A program made the translations under genes and the position numbers. The notes below the pieces were generated by a model. It was not told the DNA's origin. It worked only from the letters and a program-made list of their open reading frames with translations, and did no database searches. Below are positions 2,496 to 38,139 of a stretch of DNA of 64,000 nucleotides, one piece after another. Every line of letters begins with the position of its first letter. Within the stretch, counting starts at the first letter, position 1. The stretch is from sequence record PQ724392.1; one strand, given 5' to 3'. Origin of the DNA: a phage.

Positions 2496-2738
2496 TTATT
2501 CCTTAATTCCTAATACTTGTTTGAAGGTCTCAGTATAATCGGGGTATTGACCGGTTTGTTCTTTATGTTTGACCATAATACCATAAACTTCTGAACGCAT
2601 ATTATTATATGAACGAGTTAAAGCAGATTTCAATACTGAATAACTATCCGGAAGTTTACCGTGTTCTTTATAATAGGCCAGAGTTAATTCACGGACCGCC
2701 TTATCAGCAGTCTCAAGATATTCTTTACGCTTTGCCAT
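2496..2738 (-). CDS. hypothetical protein
   Basis: 80-aa ORF. Confidence 0.5.
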
Positions 2739-3036
2739 TATCTACAATCTCATTATAAGCTGTATAGGCCGCTATTGCAATACACTCTTCTAACGGTAAA
2801 TTTGTATTTGGTTGGTTTATTAAAGCCGAATTAGCCCGGATTTTAAAAACAGTAATGGCATAATCAATTGAAGATTGAATATTACGATGGATGGAATCTA
2901 TACTAACTGTTGCACCGCAATCTTCAACGTATTGGAGACATATTCGGGTCGTTAATTCCTGAAGTTCTTTAAACAAGCCTTTCATCTCATCAGTCTCAAT
3001 GATATTTTGACTTTTAAATGGGTTTAAATTATTCAT
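2725..3036 (-). CDS. hypothetical protein (start trimmed to internal ATG)
   Basis: internal ATG at 3036 avoids overlap with upstream gene. Confidence 0.45.
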
Positions 3037-3316
3037 TTTCTTCTCGCTCAAATTTGTGTTTGCAATGTCTGCATTTATAACGAAGATTACTAGTCTGCCA
3101 ATGGACCAACTGGACCTGCTCAGTTCCACATTCTGGACAGTTTGGAACACGCTTAGAGGCGCGTTCACGGCGACGAACCATAGCCATTACCATATCCCAG
3201 TCAGTAACCTGGTTATAATCATCAGTCCAGTTTAAAAGACCTTTATTAACCCCCGCTGCGGGGGTCCATTCTGGAAATGCAGTTTCTGCAATATCTTCAG
3301 CTAAACGTTGTTTCAT
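3029..3316 (-). CDS. zinc-ribbon protein
   Basis: 95 aa; CPEC...CRHC Cys pairs. Confidence 0.5.
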   Translation of the reverse strand: MKQRLAEDIAETAFPEWTPAAGVNKGLLNWTDDYNQVTDWDMVMAMVRRRERASKRVPNCPECGTEQVQLVHWQTSNLRYKCRHCKHKFEREENE

Positions 3317-4302
3317 TTCAGCAGCTCCAGAGCTTGTTCCAGTTTATCCAGACGATTAGTTGATTCTTCCCAAAGTCGCTTGGCTTTGGTATAGTCTTCA
3401 GTTGCCTTTTTATTAACAGCAAGAGCTTTATTATACGCCATTTCCAGAGCAACAATTTCAGGCGCTTTTTGTTCCACTGGCTCATTATTCAGATTATCAA
3501 TCAGGTCTTCAAGGGTGGTTTCTTGCGGAGCATTCATAATTTCCTCACTTTTCTTTTTATAAATTTCTGCATCAGTTGGTTGTTTTGCGCATTTAACTTC
3601 ACGCAATGTCACCACAATTTTCCAACCTTTCCAACCATGAGCACTGGTGATAGGGTCTACTTTAATTTTTTCAACAGTGCGCATATAATTAAGGGCACAT
3701 TGCAGCTGTGAAGTAAGCGTGCTCGCGGCATCAAGATACTTTTTGACATTTTCTGGAGTAGCCACTGGCGTAAAGAATCCATACTTAACTGTAATAATTA
3801 CCTGGTTTTCACCAGACTCTTTAACCTTTATCATGTGCTCAGCCAAATGGGAGATAGTGCGATAATCGCTACCCATCAATTTTGTCGCTGATTTGATGAT
3901 AGACATTTTGTTATCTCTGAATTCACGAGCCCAGCAATTTGCGAATTCAGAAACAGTATAGCCTTGTTTATCAAGGTAGTATTTTTCAACATCACCAAAC
4001 CAATGATATCCAATTGTACCTTTACCATGTCTGGATTCAACGCCAAACTTATTAAGAAGGTCTTTATTAACTAGGTATGCCAGGACTCGGGAACCTTTAA
4101 AAGTTTTCTTGATATCATCTTTACCGGCACGGCTCGCAATAGTCGCAATGTCTTTCTTGAAGCGCCCGGATGCAACAATCGTCGAGTCAATCTGATTTAA
4201 CCAGTAATTGATAATTAAAAGGATAGCCGATTCACCTATTAATGGTTTTACTTTTGCATCGATAGTGGTGTTAAAGGCCTGGATATATTCGTTACGTGTC
4301 AT
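3313..4302 (-). CDS. hypothetical protein with C-terminal coiled coil
   Basis: 329-aa ORF; heptad-like C-terminus; promoter upstream. Confidence 0.6.
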   Translation of the reverse strand: MTRNEYIQAFNTTIDAKVKPLIGESAILLIINYWLNQIDSTIVASGRFKKDIATIASRAGKDDIKKTFKGSRVLAYLVNKDLLNKFGVESRHGKGTIGYHWFGDVEKYYLDKQGYTVSEFANCWAREFRDNKMSIIKSATKLMGSDYRTISHLAEHMIKVKESGENQVIITVKYGFFTPVATPENVKKYLDAASTLTSQLQCALNYMRTVEKIKVDPITSAHGWKGWKIVVTLREVKCAKQPTDAEIYKKKSEEIMNAPQETTLEDLIDNLNNEPVEQKAPEIVALEMAYNKALAVNKKATEDYTKAKRLWEESTNRLDKLEQALELLK

Positions 4303-4329
4303 AGTGTTCTCCTCATAAAGTAGGAATTC

Positions 4330-4359
4330 ATTATACTCCCTCCATCCTTGGAAGTAAAC
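4330..4359 (-). promoter_or_regulatory. sigma70-type early promoter (GTTTAC, 18 nt, TATAAT)
   Basis: read on minus strand just downstream of previous stop codon. Confidence 0.45.
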
Positions 4360-4360
4360 A

Positions 4361-5236
4361 TTATTTTAATGCTAAAATCGCCGCCTGCAATTTATTGCGT
4401 TGTGTTTCCATATTCTTGATGCGATTCAGAACATCCTGAATACCCTTTTTCTCATCTTCAATCAGACCGTTTAAGCGGTTGACTGATTCCTGGATAGCAT
4501 CAGCATGATAGCTCTCAATAGGCTTCATTGGTGGGTTAAAGATTTCAAGAGAGCTGTTTGGCTGGATTTTCCATTGATACATATTTTTAACTTCCAGTGG
4601 TGAAATTTTAGCCTGGTCGTAAGATTTAAACTGACCTGTAACTGCTGGGTTATATGCTGCAGTAGGGGTTTCCATTTCTGGTTCCTTTTTCTCTTGATAA
4701 GGAGCATAAGACAAAAGATATTCTTTAGTTAATTTAATATCAATGACTATAGTTTTAAGGAATTTTTCTGTTTGATGGATATAATTTGTATCTTCTTCAA
4801 ACGTGTATGCTTCAACGGCATGACGCATATAAAACAGAGCAATACCCATAACCTCTTTAAAGGTATCACAAAGAGCAACATCACCCTTAGTAGTTGGCTT
4901 GAACTTAATCTGCACGCCATCGTTCTTGATATTAATAATCAAGTTATCGGAGTTAAAATTATAGTTCTTGATGTTAACCGGAGCCTTGCGAATACGAAGC
5001 CCCGCAGCCAGGATTTCCTTAATGCTCTTACGAACTGTGGCACCAAACAAAAACGCAGGGCGGCGGCAGTAATCATTCAGAGAGTTAATTCTTACAATAC
5101 GTTGCCCATACCCCTGGGTGGCAGAACCTGATTTGATTTTACCAAAGTTAACCAGAGAATTCATCGCGATAAGACGGGTTGCACGACCTTCACGCTGTTC
5201 AAATCGAGAATATTCTTTACGTGTTTTAATTTTCAT
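4361..5236 (-). CDS. hypothetical protein with C-terminal coiled coil
   Basis: long ORF; start set to ATG at 5236 (alternatives 5260, TTG 5272). Confidence 0.55.
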   Translation of the reverse strand: MKIKTRKEYSRFEQREGRATRLIAMNSLVNFGKIKSGSATQGYGQRIVRINSLNDYCRRPAFLFGATVRKSIKEILAAGLRIRKAPVNIKNYNFNSDNLIINIKNDGVQIKFKPTTKGDVALCDTFKEVMGIALFYMRHAVEAYTFEEDTNYIHQTEKFLKTIVIDIKLTKEYLLSYAPYQEKKEPEMETPTAAYNPAVTGQFKSYDQAKISPLEVKNMYQWKIQPNSSLEIFNPPMKPIESYHADAIQESVNRLNGLIEDEKKGIQDVLNRIKNMETQRNKLQAAILALK

Positions 5237-5237
5237 A

Positions 5238-5453
5238 TCATAATCCAAATAATTTTTCATAGAGTTTAGCAAAAGGCCAGGTCACACACATTATAACAGC
5301 GACTACCCAGAATATAGGCCAGCAAAATGTTGTGAACGCCGCATCATACTCGTCCCCACTTTCGTAGGGACTATCAAACTTGTGGAGCAACAGGGTAGTA
5401 ATAAAACCTATCACAAGATAACCAAAAATAATGCTGATAATCAAAATAGTCAT
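5238..5453 (-). CDS. small membrane protein (2 TM)
   Basis: ATG at 5453 with AAGGA RBS; hydrophobic. Confidence 0.5.
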   Translation of the reverse strand: MTILIISIIFGYLVIGFITTLLLHKFDSPYESGDEYDAAFTTFCWPIFWVVAVIMCVTWPFAKLYEKLFGL

Positions 5454-5454
5454 A

Positions 5455-6300
5455 TTAATCCTTAAGCAATTCAATAACGTTCATCAGTTTCTGACGTTCG
5501 GCTTTCGCCGCGTTATTCAGTCCCGACAGACGGAAAATTTCATCATCTTGCTGCTGGATGGTGATGTTAAGCTCTTCAATCTGTTTAGTGAAAAGCTCAA
5601 TTTGCTCTGAATATTTTTCATTGCTTCGCACTGGAACAGGTTCCATTTTAGGAGCTTGTTCTGAAGGGCTGACTTCAAATTGGTCTTTAATTTGGCATAA
5701 TTTAATACGCTGGACGCCTCCAGTTTTAACATCATAAAAGGTAAGAATACCGTGACATTCCAGTACAGACAATGCCAAACGAAGATGGAATTTCCAATTA
5801 TCATATTGACATCCACTAAAAGAAGAAATACTGTATTCACCTTCTTTTTGACCTTTAATAACATTAAATAGTTTATAATCTAAAGAATTATTGGTTTTAA
5901 AGGTCATTTGTTTATCTTGACCGCTTGCTAAACGAGCGCCTAATGCCAATAAACGGCGCTGGTTTTTCCAAAGGTCTTTAACCACTTCATCAAACGTCAT
6001 GGTGTTAATCGCACGACCATAAAGGTCATAACCTTTATTATAATTTTTAAGTAAAATTTTGGCATTAGCACGAGACAACATACCTGAACGATGAAGAGAT
6101 TTCATGACTCGGTCTTCTAATGTAAGAAGACCAGTGGTCTTTTCAAAGATTTTAGTGAATTCAGCGGAATTAGTACAAACATTGAACTTATTCCACATCA
6201 TATATAGAACATTTAAAACCACATCTTTGGTGCTTGGTATACGACCAAATTTAACAACTTTTTTAACTTCAGAACGAATTTCATTAATTGCTTGCGACAT
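5455..6300 (-). CDS. hypothetical protein with C-terminal coiled coil
   Basis: 281-aa ORF. Confidence 0.6.
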   Translation of the reverse strand: MSQAINEIRSEVKKVVKFGRIPSTKDVVLNVLYMMWNKFNVCTNSAEFTKIFEKTTGLLTLEDRVMKSLHRSGMLSRANAKILLKNYNKGYDLYGRAINTMTFDEVVKDLWKNQRRLLALGARLASGQDKQMTFKTNNSLDYKLFNVIKGQKEGEYSISSFSGCQYDNWKFHLRLALSVLECHGILTFYDVKTGGVQRIKLCQIKDQFEVSPSEQAPKMEPVPVRSNEKYSEQIELFTKQIEELNITIQQQDDEIFRLSGLNNAAKAERQKLMNVIELLKD

Positions 6301-6363
6301 AATAATTTCCTCAATAGATTAATCAAAGGTCAGAACCATTATACCATCCTTGGTATAAAGCGT

Positions 6364-6888
6364 TTATGCGAGAACCGTCTTTAAACGCTCTTCAAACTTC
6401 TGAAGGAGTACCTGGCGCTCTGCTCTTTGTTTGGTATAGGTTTCAATACGCTCTGAAGTGAGATTGTATTGTTCATTAACTGATTCCCTCATGAATTCAG
6501 GAATCTCTTTACATGCTTTGATTTCATTGAACTTATCAAGCACCGCTTGTTGTTCAGCAATCAGACCATCATAATATTGGATATCTGATTTGATGTTTTG
6601 TACATCAGATTCAGTAGGCATATTTTTCTTTGCTCTTGTCGCCTGATACTCAGCATTAGTCTCTCTTGACCAGAACAAAGAGCGGTTTTTATTGGTGTTT
6701 TTATACACATCAACAATACCAACTGAATCAACAGTCACAATCCAGTTCCAGGCGTTTTTATAAGTTTGACCGCCTGATACTGTAATCTCACCCGCACAAG
6801 CAACATCATTAAAGAACTTGCTTTGTGCTTCTGATTTAAAATTACCATTATTGTAATTAATCAGATTAAAGATTGATTTCGCTTCCAT
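6364..6888 (-). CDS. hypothetical protein
   Basis: 174-aa ORF preceded by conserved leader cassette. Confidence 0.55.
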   Translation of the reverse strand: MEAKSIFNLINYNNGNFKSEAQSKFFNDVACAGEITVSGGQTYKNAWNWIVTVDSVGIVDVYKNTNKNRSLFWSRETNAEYQATRAKKNMPTESDVQNIKSDIQYYDGLIAEQQAVLDKFNEIKACKEIPEFMRESVNEQYNLTSERIETYTKQRAERQVLLQKFEERLKTVLA

Positions 6889-6956: not shown

Positions 6957-7259
6957 TTAATTAAAAGTTCTTTCAGTATTTTCACCGCTGAACCAGACGC
7001 TCTTAACGGCTTGCTGGGCGCGGTAGAGCTGCTCCGCCATATAAACACCAAGGGCCTCAGCTTTACGCGTTCTGTGAGCTTCTGCGGCGACCATTTGCAG
7101 CTTATCCATCATGATAAGAGCTTTACATTTCTCCTTCAGAGCATATCGCTTCTTCTCTTCTGGAGTTTTGACCATTCCTCTTAACTTGTGCATTTTCAAC
7201 TTAAAATGGTCAGCAGATTTCAGACATGCATCAATCATGTCAATTTCATACTTTTTCAT
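6957..7259 (-). CDS. hypothetical protein
   Basis: 100-aa ORF. Confidence 0.5.
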   Translation of the reverse strand: MKKYEIDMIDACLKSADHFKLKMHKLRGMVKTPEEKKRYALKEKCKALIMMDKLQMVAAEAHRTRKAEALGVYMAEQLYRAQQAVKSVWFSGENTERTFN

Positions 7260-7589: not shown

Positions 7590-8336
7590 ATGATTTTATC
7601 CGGAAGAACTGTTGATGAACTCAATGAAAAAGTCCAGGCTGCCTTGGCTAATAATTGGTATTTGTTTGGTTCTACTATGGTGTTGCCGAATACTCCTACG
7701 GATAGCAAAGAGCGTTTTTTCCAAACTATGTCCAGCTCGGAAACTCAGATACCGGGCCCGCCTGGTCCAAAAGGAGACCCGGGTGTACCAGGACCAAAAG
7801 GAGACCCAGGCGGGGATGGAAAGTCTTCTTATCAGATATGGCTTGACTTGGGAAATACAGGAACTGTTGATGATTTTTTAACTGATACAGCAGGAAAGAG
7901 GGAAAAATCCGAGGTGTTTTGGAGTGGTATAAACGTTCTATTAACTAATGGTGTGACTTCAAACATAATTAGTATTTTAAAGGGGATTCCGCCGACTGCA
8001 GGGACTCTATCTCCGTTTTTTAGAACCACTGATGATAAGTTGTGGCCATATAACCAAGACAGAAGCCTAATGTTTAAACTCAACCTTATTGGTAATTTTA
8101 CAGGAGCCTCGCAAGCTCGAAGTATAACATTAAATTTCGTTGGAACCAACGGAAACACTTATATACAGAATCGTCCGGAAAATGCTACAGATATTTTGTC
8201 TTTTACAACGTTCTTTAGCATTGATAAAGATGGGGCAATGGCAACCAATGGTACAGCTATAACTGTTATGCCAAATGGCGGCAACTTTACAATAACCTCT
8301 GCATTGTTAGTAGCCGAACAAACAGTGACTTCATAA
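7590..8336 (+). CDS. collagen-like repeat protein with beta-rich C-terminal domain
   Basis: 248 aa; AAAGGAG RBS; GPPGPKGDPGVPGPKGDPGGDG Gly-X-Y run; only plus-strand gene in the early block. Confidence 0.7.
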   Translation: MILSGRTVDELNEKVQAALANNWYLFGSTMVLPNTPTDSKERFFQTMSSSETQIPGPPGPKGDPGVPGPKGDPGGDGKSSYQIWLDLGNTGTVDDFLTDTAGKREKSEVFWSGINVLLTNGVTSNIISILKGIPPTAGTLSPFFRTTDDKLWPYNQDRSLMFKLNLIGNFTGASQARSITLNFVGTNGNTYIQNRPENATDILSFTTFFSIDKDGAMATNGTAITVMPNGGNFTITSALLVAEQTVTS

Positions 8337-35312: not shown

Positions 35313-35749
35313 CCTAATTTTTTCAGTGAGTTTTCAGTGATTATCCTGAACGTTATACCCATTTTATCTGCGGTAGCTTGCGCAGCTTTCCATTTGTCAG
35401 AGTTAACACTCCAGGTGTACATCTCGTTAATAAATCTCTTTTTACTCGCGGCTGTATTATTAACTGGCTTGGTTGGAGGTCTTGTTTCTTTTAATGGCTT
35501 AACTTCGAAAAAGAACTGTTGTCCTGTATCAAACTTAACCCAGAAATCCATATAATATCTGCGCTTTTTCCCTTCAGCATTGCAGAAGTATGGAATAATC
35601 ACAGTCTCAGAGCCCCATTGAACAACGTTCGGATGGTTGTCGAGCCATCTCATCAGCCACGCCTCCCAGCTTGACCGGTATTGTATTTTCTTCCAGTCGC
35701 CCTTATATTTTTCTATATTAGTGGGCTTAAATTTCCCGGAGTATGCCAT
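35300..35749 (-). CDS. 4: Head completion protein gp4
   Basis: 149 aa; MAYSGKF...[14 protein letters not shown] matches remembered T4 gp4. Confidence 0.9.
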
Positions 35750-35777
35750 ATAGCCTCCTAATAAATATTGATATACT

Positions 35778-35785
35778 TATTTATA
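35778..35785 (-). promoter_or_regulatory. late promoter TATAAATA for gene 4
   Basis: exact 8-mer on minus strand about 29 nt upstream of gene 4 ATG. Confidence 0.45.
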
Positions 35786-35797
35786 AATGGAGGCTTT

Positions 35798-36400
35798 ATG
35801 CTTTTTTCATTTTTTAACCCAATTGATTATGATGCTAAAACAATCAGAAAAAACTCGGCATCATTAACGAAAGAAGATGTCTTAAGCATCCCAATGACTG
35901 ACATCTTCAGAAACTATCGTGCATATTTTGATAAGGTCGCGGTTAATTATACACCGAAAACATATTACATCGCCGGAGCTCCGAGACCTGAAGAACTTGC
36001 ATATCAGCTCTATGGTAATACTCAACTCTATTGGGTTCTCCTTATGCTTAATAATATCTATGACCCGTATTATGGTTGGATATGTTCACAAGAATCATCG
36101 TATCAGGCATCCATTCAACGCTATTCGAATATAGGTGGTAATCAGGTTCTTTATCATGTAAATGAAGATGGTGAAAAATTCTGGAATCTTGTTTCTTATC
36201 CTGATAATCCATACACATGGTATGATAAAGGTGATAAGAACAAATTATACCCGCAATATGAAGGCCCATTAGCTGCAGTGGATATCTACGAAGATGCTAT
36301 TCGCAAAAATGAATATAAACGAGAAATAAAGATAATCGACCCTAATGATATCGAATCATTTATTTCGGCATTAATCCGCGAGATGGAGAAGGCGCTATGA
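35798..36400 (+). CDS. 53: Baseplate wedge protein gp53
   Basis: 200 aa from ATG 35798 (GGAGG RBS); MLFSFFNPIDY matches T4 gp53 start. Confidence 0.85.
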   Translation: MLFSFFNPIDYDAKTIRKNSASLTKEDVLSIPMTDIFRNYRAYFDKVAVNYTPKTYYIAGAPRPEELAYQLYGNTQLYWVLLMLNNIYDPYYGWICSQESSYQASIQRYSNIGGNQVLYHVNEDGEKFWNLVSYPDNPYTWYDKGDKNKLYPQYEGPLAAVDIYEDAIRKNEYKREIKIIDPNDIESFISALIREMEKAL

Positions 36401-38139
36401 TTAATATGTCAGATAGTGTAAGTTGGTTCGTCGGTGTTGTCGAAGACCGAATGGACCCACTTCAACAAGGTCGTGTTCGTGTCCGGGTATGGGGTATGCA
36501 CCCATATGAGAAATCACAAGGGCCTGTAAAAGGTATCAGAACTGAAGACCTGCCATGGATGTCCGTACTGATGCCAACATCATCTGCATCGGTTTCTGGT
36601 ATTCAAACTGCCATGACTGGTATGGTACCAGGGACTCAGGTATATGGTCACTTTTTGGACAAGTGGAAGCTCAATGGATTAGTCCTTGGTACATATGGCT
36701 CAGCATCAAGACAGAAGGCAAACACAACAGAAGGTTTTAGCGACCCCACAGGGCAATATCCGCTTTATGTGGGCAATGATGCTGCTGCGCTTAACCGAGG
36801 CGGTGAGGTCGGTTATGATGACACTTCAAACGTAATACAAGATGCAAACACTGATGTAGGTATTAATCCAGACGGGTTAGATTTAAGCCAAGTTAAGCCT
36901 GATGATAATCCTAATTTCACAATAGAAAACATGCTTCACCGCGATGAAGGTCTTCGTCTGAAAGTATATTGGGACACTGAAGGTTATCCTACTATAGGTA
37001 TAGGACACTTAATTACACCACAACCTATTAGAGATATGAATCAGATAAACAAAATATTATCTAATCAAATAGGCCGTGAAGTTAAAGGTAACCCTGGTGC
37101 AATATCAATGGACGAGGCTTCTAAGTTATTCCAAGAAGACCTTAAAAAAGTCCAAAATGATATAGGTAGACATAGTGTTGTAGGTCCGGTTTACAATAAA
37201 GAAAACCGTTCAAGACAAATGGCTCTTGAAAACATGGCTTTCCAAATGGGATTAGGTGGACTTGCTAAATTCCGTGGAATGCTTAGTGCAATGTTAATAG
37301 GCGATTATAAAAAGGCATTTGAGGAAGCTCGTAATTCAGTATGGTTTAACCAAACTAAAGGGCGTGCATCAAGGGTATCAATGATTATCCTTACTGGTAA
37401 TATGGAATCATATGGTATTATGGCCCCTAAAGAAATGGAATTTAAAGGGCGTTCATATAGGATGATTCAAACCTTTGCGGCCCCTACAAATTCTGACCCG
37501 GCCGACCCGTGGACTCCAGAAGATACGAGGATTCTATTTAAAGAGCCAGAATCAAGTTACAAGGGCGAATATCCTTATGTGCAGACAATGCAAACCGAAG
37601 GCGGACATATTCAGGAATTCGATAACACTCCAGGACAAGAACGTTATCGACTGATTCATCCGACCGGTTCCTATGAGGAAGTTGCACCAGATGGTCGTAA
37701 GACTTCGAAGACGGTAGCCGATGGCTATTATATGACCCAGGGTGATTCAAGCACTTATGTTGGTGGGAATAATAAAGTCAACGTTGGCGGTGACGAAACC
37801 TATTACAATATGGCTAACGTTCGTCGTCAGACCGATGGAAACGAAACCATCCATATTCGTGGTAACGAAGAGAAAACTGTAGAAGGTAATGGAACACTCA
37901 GAGTTAAAGGCAACGTTACTGTTATTGTTGAAGGAAATGCTGATGTTACTGTTAAGGGTGATGCGACTACCTTAGTAGAAGGTAATGAAACTCGCACGAC
38001 TAATGGTAATTTAAACTGGACTGTAAATGGTACCGTATCTTGGACTTGTGCAGGTGCTTGGTCCGAGACTATGGCTTCAATGAGTTCTATTGCATCTGGT
38101 CAATATACTATTGATGGTTCGAGGATTGACATTGGCTAA
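36397..38139 (+). CDS. 5: Baseplate hub subunit and tail lysozyme gp5
   Basis: 580 aa; internal lysozyme domain; C-terminal VxGxxxxx beta-helix repeats. Confidence 0.9.
   Translation: MINMSDSVSWFVGVVEDRMDPLQQGRVRVRVWGMHPYEKSQGPVKGIRTEDLPWMSVLMPTSSASVSGIQTAMTGMVPGTQVYGHFLDKWKLNGLVLGTYGSASRQKANTTEGFSDPTGQYPLYVGNDAAALNRGGEVGYDDTSNVIQDANTDVGINPDGLDLSQVKPDDNPNFTIENMLHRDEGLRLKVYWDTEGYPTIGIGHLITPQPIRDMNQINKILSNQIGREVKGNPGAISMDEASKLFQEDLKKVQNDIGRHSVVGPVYNKENRSRQMALENMAFQMGLGGLAKFRGMLSAMLIGDYKKAFEEARNSVWFNQTKGRASRVSMIILTGNMESYGIMAPKEMEFKGRSYRMIQTFAAPTNSDPADPWTPEDTRILFKEPESSYKGEYPYVQTMQTEGGHIQEFDNTPGQERYRLIHPTGSYEEVAPDGRKTSKTVADGYYMTQGDSSTYVGGNNKVNVGGDETYYNMANVRRQTDGNETIHIRGNEEKTVEGNGTLRVKGNVTVIVEGNADVTVKGDATTLVEGNETRTTNGNLNWTVNGTVSWTCAGAWSETMASMSSIASGQYTIDGSRIDIG

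Follow-up and report, generated by a model that had tools for sequence, protein, structure and literature searches.

Bacteriophage T4 is the best-studied phage, yet for the majority of its nrdC.N early genes no function has been assigned. The genes themselves are familiar as T4-type genes, and one orthologous family among them, that of NrdC.5, has a published anti-defence role. An evolved T4 clone carrying a deletion lost plating on ECOR17, and plating was restored by deleting the host gene dsr1 (Srikant et al. 2022, eLife, PMC9391042). Cloned ECOR17 dsr1 shielded MG1655 from the T4 deletion mutant, and nrdC.5 supplied in trans from a plasmid restored infection (PMC9391042). Dsr1 is a SIR2-domain defence protein that likely disrupts NAD+ levels (PMC9391042); according to a 2026 preprint, it uses a TPR sensor to recognise the major capsid proteins of phages rather than tail proteins (PMC12803255). 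In the literature we found no later work on the mechanism of NrdC.5 or on NrdC.3, NrdC.4 and NrdC.6, and no record of an earlier unification of the four proteins as one family. In the databases NrdC.3, NrdC.4 and NrdC.6 are represented by separate conserved hypothetical families (PF26897, PF26899; phrog_1435, phrog_2257). Here we analyze a 64,000-nucleotide stretch of phage DNA (sequence record PQ724392.1; 'the window' means this whole stretch), in which three open reading frames (ORFs) at 3313-4302, 4361-5236 and 5455-6300 correspond to nrdC.4, nrdC.5 and nrdC.6. The results support the view that the three arose long ago by tandem duplication of one gene and have diverged strongly since, NrdC.4 being the hub.

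The window (~40% GC) derives from a Gaprivervirus, a VR7/SP18-like T4-type coliphage of the Straboviridae; in a megablast search Gaprivervirus genomes match the region of the three ORFs at 93-98% identity over 6.5 kb. Read from the annotated relatives VR7 and EAWsc9 and from the T4 reference, the minus-strand gene order along transcription is nrdC.11, three small ORFs, nrdC.9, nrdC.8, nrdC.6, a small membrane-protein ORF, nrdC.5, nrdC.4, nrdC.2, a 103-aa (amino acid) ORF, nrdC.1 and nrdC. Judged by sequence, the three ORFs are orthologues of T4 nrdC.4, nrdC.5 and nrdC.6, the names that their orthologues bear in the VR7 annotation:

3313..4302, minus strand: nrdC.4 orthologue and hub of the paralog family; 329 aa plus stop; phrog_1435 (E = 1.6e-138), PF26897.
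4361..5236, minus strand: nrdC.5 orthologue; 291 aa plus stop; DUF7235 (PF23882), phrog_2351.
5455..6300, minus strand: nrdC.6 orthologue; 281 aa plus stop; phrog_2257 (E = 2.3e-119), PF26899.

The original prediction, made from the letters alone, had located three large proteins here and suggested that they might be divergent paralogs. The ORFs are indeed where it had put them, all on the minus strand (which it had left out), and their products are medium-sized rather than large. Both the NrdC.4 and NrdC.6 assignments combine full-length homology with the corresponding T4 map position. The phrog_1435 match spans NrdC.4 residues 1-329, PF26897 is present in 62 of 62 NrdC.4 homologues and PF26899 in 104 of 104 NrdC.6 homologues, and NrdC.6 matches its T4 counterpart with a BLASTP E-value of 1e-51. 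As for NrdC.5, the longest form of the ORF (4361-5272) scores 397.8 bits against DUF7235 (PF23882; cutoff 30) and covers profile positions 1-307 of 307, while the same model matches neither the NrdC.4 nor the NrdC.6 ORF. BLASTP aligns NrdC.5 of the window with T4 NrdC.5 at E = 2e-25 (27% identity, 95% of the length), and tblastn finds nrdC.5 homologues in 578 phage records. The nrdC.5 frame is open to TTG 5272, and both this codon and ATG 5260 are alternative starts. We prefer ATG 5236 as the best start because it comes directly after the stop of the upstream small ORF (TGATATG), because the same start is annotated in EAWsc9 and because the N-terminus is then of the type seen in the paralogs (MKIKTRKEY versus MTRNEY and MKTRKHY).

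BLASTP detects no similarity for any pair among NrdC.4, NrdC.5 and NrdC.6, and both Pfam and PHROGs place them in three separate families. Taken by themselves, these results would fit three unrelated proteins that acquired a C-terminal coiled coil by convergence and are alike in size and layout by chance. For deeper comparison, profiles were built from the homologues of each family, 14 related IMG/VR loci and the T4 locus. In the first HHalign runs, with shallow families (effective number of sequences, Neff, about 2), probabilities were just 2-6%; they rose after T4-type and other divergent members had been added. The NrdC.4 hidden Markov model (HMM) matches T4 NrdC.3 at E = 8e-16, and HHalign gives 98% for NrdC.3 versus NrdC.4; on these profile matches the two are plain paralogs, and T4 NrdC.3 is a clear fourth member of the family. 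An all-versus-all HHalign comparison also took in eight gene families from the neighbourhood as controls. Of its 66 scores the six highest all belonged to pairs within the NrdC.3-6 group, and the best of the 60 control pairs reached 23.2. As a further control the template alignment was block-shuffled 48 times per pair, with the following results:

NrdC.4 and NrdC.5: HHalign score 38.8, shuffles 17.4 +/- 2.9; 0 of 48 shuffles reach the real score.
NrdC.4 and NrdC.6: HHalign score 29.7, shuffles 17.1 +/- 2.7; 0 of 48.
NrdC.3 and NrdC.5: HHalign score 33.7, shuffles 18.0 +/- 2.1; 0 of 48.
NrdC.3 and NrdC.6: HHalign score 29.4, shuffles 15.8 +/- 2.4; 0 of 48.
NrdC.5 and NrdC.6: HHalign score 23.8, shuffles 18.3 +/- 3.4; 4 of 48.

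With the addition of two divergent NrdC.5 representatives, taken from the HMMER search described below, NrdC.4 and NrdC.5 align with a probability of 87.5% (E = 3.6e-6, 235 collinear columns), and a merged NrdC.3 and NrdC.4 profile reaches 90.5% against NrdC.5 (E = 1.3e-6, 237 columns). From NrdC.4 residue 75 onwards, NrdC.4 and NrdC.5 align collinearly up to the C-terminus, with the motif DLLNKFG opposite NSLVNFG, FRDNKMSIIKSATKL opposite VRKSIKEILAAGLRI, ALNYMRTVE opposite ALFYMRHAVE, PEIVALE opposite PMKPIES, and the two ends opposite each other. The kinship of NrdC.5 and NrdC.6, as far as profiles go, would follow by transitivity via NrdC.4 and NrdC.3.

An exhaustive HMMER search with the NrdC.5 profile over 1.84 billion representative proteins returned 6 matches, all of the NrdC.5 type, with no sequence bridge to the other families, and the rest of the 64-kb window contains no further paralog that the family HMMs detect. 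Sequence-profile searches of the PDB brought up an Smc coiled coil at E = 0.19 and several designed helical repeats, none of them meaningful, and weak Pfam matches (TctC, Glyoxalase_6) were far under the cutoffs. NrdC.8 was considered as a fourth family member in the window and rejected, its HHalign scores being at background. NrdC.8 (6364-6888, minus strand) ends in a helical coil-like tail (ERQVLLQKFEERLKTVLA), and the EAWsc9 orthologue of NrdC.9 (6957-7259, minus strand) is labelled 'coil containing protein'; at 26% identity to its T4 counterpart, nrdC.9 is another fast-evolving gene. Neither NrdC.8 nor NrdC.9 shows profile similarity to the NrdC.3-6 family.

To define the common layout, we combined AlphaFold2 models of NrdC.4 (mean predicted local distance difference test, pLDDT, 83; predicted template modelling score, pTM, 0.67) and NrdC.6 (pLDDT 80, pTM 0.66) with composition and heptad analysis of all three proteins. 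In both models a folded head (residues 1-235 of NrdC.4, 1-203 of NrdC.6) is connected to a long C-terminal helix by a linker of low confidence (pLDDT 33-69). The parts are as follows, with Pro+Glu fractions given for the linker versus the whole protein, and with the number of hydrophobic heptad a/d positions and of shuffles reaching the observed contrast given for the coils:

4048..4302, minus strand: NrdC.4 residues 1-85, all-alpha N-terminal subdomain of six helices.
3598..3966, minus strand: NrdC.4 residues 113-235, alpha/beta domain (two helices, hairpin, long helix, hairpin) with a probable tail-terminator-like fold.
3463..3597, minus strand: NrdC.4 residues 236-280, flexible Pro/Glu-rich linker with two short helices (pLDDT 48-69; Pro+Glu 0.26 versus 0.10).
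3316..3462, minus strand: NrdC.4 residues 281-329, heptad-repeat helix ending in KLEQALELLK (single helix 281-328; 12 of 14; 7 of 2000 shuffles).
4697..5236, minus strand: NrdC.5 residues 1-180, head, delimited by the HHalign alignments.
4517..4696, minus strand: NrdC.5 residues 181-240, Pro/Glu-rich linker (Pro+Glu 0.23 versus 0.11; 8 prolines).
4364..4516, minus strand: NrdC.5 residues 241-291, heptad-repeat segment ending in KLQAAILALK (12 of 14; 3 of 2000 shuffles).
5692..6300, minus strand: NrdC.6 residues 1-203, head, with the secondary-structure order of NrdC.4 and Foldseek matches in common with the NrdC.4 model.
5611..5691, minus strand: NrdC.6 residues 204-230, disordered Pro/Glu-rich linker (pLDDT 33-50; Pro+Glu 0.30 versus 0.09).
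5458..5610, minus strand: NrdC.6 residues 231-281, heptad-repeat helices with a kink at SGLN, ending in KLMNVIELLKD (helices 231-257 and 262-280; 11 of 14; 16 of 2000 shuffles).

The head, linker and coil layout proposed in the original prediction is thus borne out, with adjustments. The linkers are rich in Pro and Glu as described (0.23-0.30 versus 0.09-0.11 over the whole proteins), but that of NrdC.5 is not short (about 60 aa); the C-terminal heptad coils are real, at seven heptads, but measure about 50 aa instead of 35-45. Two motifs of the NrdC.4 alpha/beta domain, R..hL..A.+L..G.D and AL.YM..VE, are common to NrdC.5 and NrdC.6. HHalign places NrdC.5 residues 20-180 on NrdC.4 residues 75-235, and most of the first all-helical subdomain appears to be absent from NrdC.5 of the window.

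Structure comparison covers the NrdC.4 and NrdC.6 heads; NrdC.5 is joined to NrdC.4 by sequence profiles. In both models the secondary structure runs from five to six helices through a beta wing, two helices, a hairpin, a long helix and another hairpin to the linker and the coil. A Foldseek alignment of the NrdC.4 model with the BFVD model of NrdC.6 from phage JS10 extends over about the full length (336 columns, E = 2.2e-5, probability 1.00, TM-scores 0.43/0.49). Moreover, both models match uncharacterised proteins of ~300-370 aa from phages of Acinetobacter (Acj61, fHyAci03), Pectobacterium (PM2), Serratia (PS2), Klebsiella (vB_Kpn_P545) and Yersinia (fHe-Yen9-01); proteins of Klebsiella phage Mineola and Erwinia phage Cronus are matched by the NrdC.4 model alone, and those of Citrobacter phage Merlin and Enterobacter phage IME523 by the NrdC.6 model alone.

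These data bear directly on the idea of three unrelated proteins. It could still appeal to the non-significant NrdC.5-NrdC.6 comparison and to the tendency of coiled coils to give spurious similarity. However, collinearity in the HHalign alignments extends over 195-237 columns and takes in the heads as well as the coils, with probabilities up to 90% and scores above both the block-shuffle and the neighbouring-family controls. NrdC.8, which also has a coil-like helical tail, gives no signal in the same test. The element order of the two models, the JS10 alignment and the common distant matches point the same way. We consider unrelatedness highly improbable, and it is disfavoured here. As the original prediction supposed, the proteins appear to be divergent paralogs whose head similarity is detectable by HHalign profiles and by structure, not by BLASTP.

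The C-terminal coils were evaluated with 2000 within-segment shuffles and an a/d analysis anchored on the terminal LK, which replaced an earlier, only weakly discriminating sliding-window heptad score (z 2.2-3.3). In each of NrdC.4, NrdC.5 and NrdC.6 of the window the last 49 residues form seven uninterrupted heptads, with hydrophobic residues at 8-10 of the 35 positions other than a/d. Seven uninterrupted heptads also occupy the last 49 residues of T4 NrdC.3, NrdC.4 and NrdC.5 and of Tequatrovirus NrdC.6. For the window and T4-type proteins together, 11-13 of 14 a/d positions and 6-10 of 35 others are hydrophobic, a contrast reached by 0-16 of 2000 shuffles. The segments thus display the features by which we recognise a coiled coil, namely at least four to five uninterrupted heptads, hydrophobic a/d positions and a predicted helix. 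The register relative to the terminal LK is identical in every paralog. The endings LEQALELLK, LQAAILALK and LMNVIELLKD had been quoted correctly, and together with the detectable similarity of the heads the single register leaves neither of the two outcomes named beforehand as refuting (heads without similarity, coils in different registers). The complete set of ends is GLRNAIEVLK (NrdC.3), KLEQALELLK (NrdC.4), KLQAAILALK (NrdC.5) and KLMNVIELLK-D (NrdC.6), from which a common end L-x-x-A/V-I/L-x-x-L-K emerges; the last 10-12 residues are kept in every paralog. Of the 180 ORFs of at least 60 aa in the window, just three match the strict pattern L..[AV][ILV]..[LI][KN].?$, namely NrdC.4, NrdC.5 and NrdC.6, which exceeds chance expectation.

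Any two paralogs share 5-6 identities in the last 12 residues, with heads diverged past BLAST detection. This could mean that the paralogs cooperate: the conserved C-terminal end might assemble NrdC.3, NrdC.4, NrdC.5 and NrdC.6 into one hetero-oligomeric coiled-coil complex, or dock them on a common partner, the heads being subunits of one machine. The uniform register and the adjacent, co-oriented genes agree with such an arrangement. So does the conservation of the coil, which is the best conserved part in NrdC.4 and NrdC.5, if only about as conserved as the head in NrdC.6. On the other hand, the coils upstream of the last 12 residues differ strongly (6-12 identities in 49 residues between any two paralogs) and the copy number varies between phages (2 in Acj61, 3 in the window, 4 in T4). 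The T4 reference strain is viable with a frameshift that removes the NrdC.6 coil, and plasmid-borne T4 nrdC.5 alone countered Dsr1, though the deletion phage may have supplied other paralogs. We regard this kind of cooperation as rather unlikely.

The frameshift itself lies in the T4 reference nrdC.6 (NC_000866, 12067-12160), where one nucleotide is deleted (CTG-ATATTT versus CTGAATATTT in other Tequatrovirus, L008 6715-6930). The annotated protein ends in ...IFLFNNMMMKFSDYLD and lacks the conserved coiled coil, while the other frame still encodes ...ISIQQYDDEIFRLSGLSSKAKSEREKLIKIVDLLKS; the deletion is either a laboratory-strain mutation or a sequencing error. The C-terminal module is also seen separately. 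phrog_26858 matches only the C-terminal 60 residues of NrdC.5 of the window (E = 1.8e-7), and the metagenomic protein P0218 (83 aa) is an NrdC.5-type C-terminal module alone (KPVEQYHSD...LNKLYIQKAKLIAAIESLK), which is a fragment or else a coil module that stands by itself. These two cases give a hint that other heads, too, can carry the coil module.

The three genes diverge faster than their neighbours. Identity between the window and T4 is 50% for NrdC.4, 24% for NrdC.5 and 38-45% for NrdC.6, versus 83% for gp49, 84% for NrdC, 79% for NrdC.1, 75% for 49.2, 70% for 49.3 and 67% for NrdC.8. Gene order is the same as in T4, whose NrdC.4 and NrdC.6 are, at these identities, orthologous to those of the window; nrdC.3 is absent from the window. 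Homologues of NrdC.4, NrdC.5 and NrdC.6 are restricted to phages, and NrdC.3 is found in 654 records; T4 and RB69-type phages, with NrdC.3, have four copies. The two copies of Acinetobacter phage Acj61 (Twarogvirinae) are the tandem p120 (330 aa) and p121 (304 aa) at 35452-37472, directly downstream of nrdC; by their lengths and consecutive accession numbers they match the Foldseek hits E5E4A1 and E5E4A2. Both repeat the arrangement of NrdC.4 and NrdC.6 (head, linker, C-terminal helix), and neither is detected by the family HMMs. The C-terminal helix of p120 has continuous heptads (11 of 14 a/d positions hydrophobic; 25 of 2000 shuffles), while a single seven-heptad register is not significant in p121. 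An L-x-K-A-L motif stands near the end of each (TLNKALEIMML in p120; ILAKALVV plus eight more residues in p121). To judge from this one phage, locus and layout appear to go far back within Straboviridae. What is new here is the unification of NrdC.3, NrdC.4, NrdC.5 and NrdC.6 as one modular family, the definition of its conserved C-terminal end, the structure-level relatives in other T4-type phages, at the same locus in Acj61, and the probable tail-terminator-like fold in part of the head.

What the family does may be approached through T4 NrdC.5, whose gene lies between nrdC.4 and nrdC.6, as in the window, and whose C-terminal coil ends like that of NrdC.5 of the window (QRSKLNNALNALN in the window, QRNKLQAAILALK in T4). 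The two differ in that identity is 24-27% and ~47 N-terminal residues of the T4 protein are absent from that of the window. We think it probable that NrdC.4, NrdC.5 and NrdC.6 form a diverged, tandemly duplicated modular family of non-essential early counter-defence (host-range) proteins, each with an oligomeric coil and a fast-evolving, target-binding head, because paralogy, fast divergence, variable copy number, restriction to phages and dispensability together fit such a role. Dispensability is deduced from the position of nrdC.5 within the deletion of a viable evolved T4 clone. The proteins would be soluble, made early in infection and not essential. The C-terminal coiled coil would render each of them oligomeric, the head would bind and neutralise a particular host immunity protein, and different paralogs would have different host targets. 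By analogy with the T4 protein, NrdC.5 of the window may still target Dsr1 or a similar protein, and NrdC.4 and NrdC.6 may be counter-defence proteins as well; we infer that inhibition would be by direct binding and that the coil would drive oligomerisation. With DSAD1, the anti-DSR2 protein of SPbeta-like phages, the parallel is purely functional: DSAD1 neutralises a defence-associated sirtuin by direct binding, yet its target is DSR2, not Dsr1.

Several points weigh against this proposal. At the level of kinship, NrdC.4 versus NrdC.6 is weak by sequence (HHalign probability 10-16%), the direct NrdC.5-NrdC.6 link is not significant (4 of 48 shuffles), and the low family depth (Neff about 2) limits both the profiles and the AlphaFold2 models. 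The Foldseek TM-scores are moderate (0.43-0.49) because linker and coil are arbitrarily placed in monomer models. At the level of function, experiments have addressed T4 NrdC.5 alone; at 24-27% identity to the tested T4 protein, NrdC.5 of the window may have a different target; and a PADLOC scan gave no match to a defence-system or anti-defence family. A Cmr5 match of NrdC.4 in that scan (E = 0.004) was weak and sub-threshold, and was dismissed.

Alternatively, the paralogs might have a housekeeping or regulatory early role apart from immunity, such as binding DNA or RNA or scaffolding the nearby nucleotide-metabolism enzymes, and the effect of T4 NrdC.5 on Dsr1 would then be indirect. The genes do lie among nrd and other early genes, the first subdomain is a small helical bundle without assigned function, and the papers that we located report no direct NrdC.5-Dsr1 interaction. 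No signature of an enzyme or of nucleic-acid binding was found in the proteins. Such a role seems rather improbable to us.

The central part of the head, judged from the models, probably has a tail-terminator-like fold. The resemblance to tail terminator and completion proteins (lambda gpU 3fz2, T5 p142 8bcp, SPP1 gp17-like, gene transfer agent 6tba) is at 6-14% identity and Z < 8. Unlike those proteins, the NrdC.4 domain is embedded between a helical subdomain and the linker and coil, and shows no sign of hexameric ring formation. The usual context of tail terminators, a stand-alone protein of ~130-280 aa in a late tail-gene module, was not found for the NrdC.4 domain; its gene is part of the early region on the minus strand, with nrdC on one side and nrdC.11 on the other, and follows a promoter-like site of early type. 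The likeness is one of fold, not of membership. It nevertheless allows a bolder variant, in which NrdC.3-6 would be early oligomeric decoys built on a virion-protein (tail-terminator-like) fold: their heads would occupy the sensors of different immunity proteins before the late structural proteins appear, and the C-terminal end would join the paralogs into a multi-specific hetero-oligomeric hub. We hold this to be decidedly unlikely; if it were true, NrdC.4, NrdC.6 and NrdC.3 would each uncover a new defence/counter-defence pair in E. coli. Separately, NrdC.5 was considered as a mimic of the Dsr1 trigger and rejected: the tail-terminator-like fold gives no direct support, the Dsr1 sensor recognising major capsid proteins (PMC12803255).

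The promoter-like site directly upstream of nrdC.4 was identified by consensus match:

4330..4358, minus strand: T4-early-type promoter-like site (GTTTACT, 17 nt, TATAAT), followed by a GAGGAG ribosome-binding site.

Early timing of expression is supported by this T4-early-type sequence. The promoter-like regions of nrdC.4 (4330-4358) and nrdC.6 (6330-6365), both on the minus strand, have a common string, CCAAGGATGG, between -35 and -10 (GTTTACTTCCAAGGATGGAGGGAGTATAAT versus GCTTTATACCAAGGATGGTATAAT). The string may be a remnant of the duplication or part of an extended T4 early promoter consensus.

Several neighbouring genes deserve mention. Between nrdC.6 and nrdC.5 lies a 78-aa ORF (5238-5474, minus strand) with a predicted transmembrane helix, whose stop abuts the nrdC.5 start. 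It corresponds to VR7ORF094c in VR7 and to a 'TMhelix containing protein' in EAWsc9, and has no Pfam or PADLOC match; T4 has a different membrane protein, NrdC.7, on the other side of nrdC.6. In place of nrdC.3, the ~103-aa ORF (2725-3036, minus strand; phrog_5899, E = 3.8e-32) is situated between nrdC.2 (3029-3316) and nrdC.1. It is open from GTG 3168; in this long form it shares 140 nt with nrdC.2 in another frame, in the short form only 8 nt. A 248-aa ORF (7590-8336) runs on the plus strand within the minus-strand early region and combines a short collagen-like G-X-Y stretch (GPPGPKGDPGVPGPKGDPGGDG) with an Sf6-type tail needle knob domain (PF16532, E = 3.2e-32). Some Gaprivervirus genomes (EAWsc9) carry this ORF, and VR7 has other small ORFs instead. 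Just past its 3' end, at 8361-8344, the minus strand has a predicted terminator-like hairpin. The ORF looks like an inserted moron-type gene.

As for annotation, the label 'thioredoxin' is widespread in GenBank for homologues of NrdC.3, NrdC.4, NrdC.5 and NrdC.6, and one is called 'replication protein'. A Pfam scan found no thioredoxin or glutaredoxin family match for NrdC.4, NrdC.5 or NrdC.6, and the 'thioredoxin' labels seem to have spread from the gene name nrdC.N. A 2026 paper treats nrdC.8 as a nucleotide reductase.

With this analysis, three 'hypothetical proteins', often mislabelled 'thioredoxin', become concrete candidates for counter-defence proteins. The picture that results is modular, with a variable head that would bind the target and a conserved coil that would oligomerise, and the relatives at the Acj61 locus suggest that the family extends beyond coliphages within Straboviridae. 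Rather than a new kind of system, the finding offers practical value for annotation and for the choice of genes in host-range experiments.

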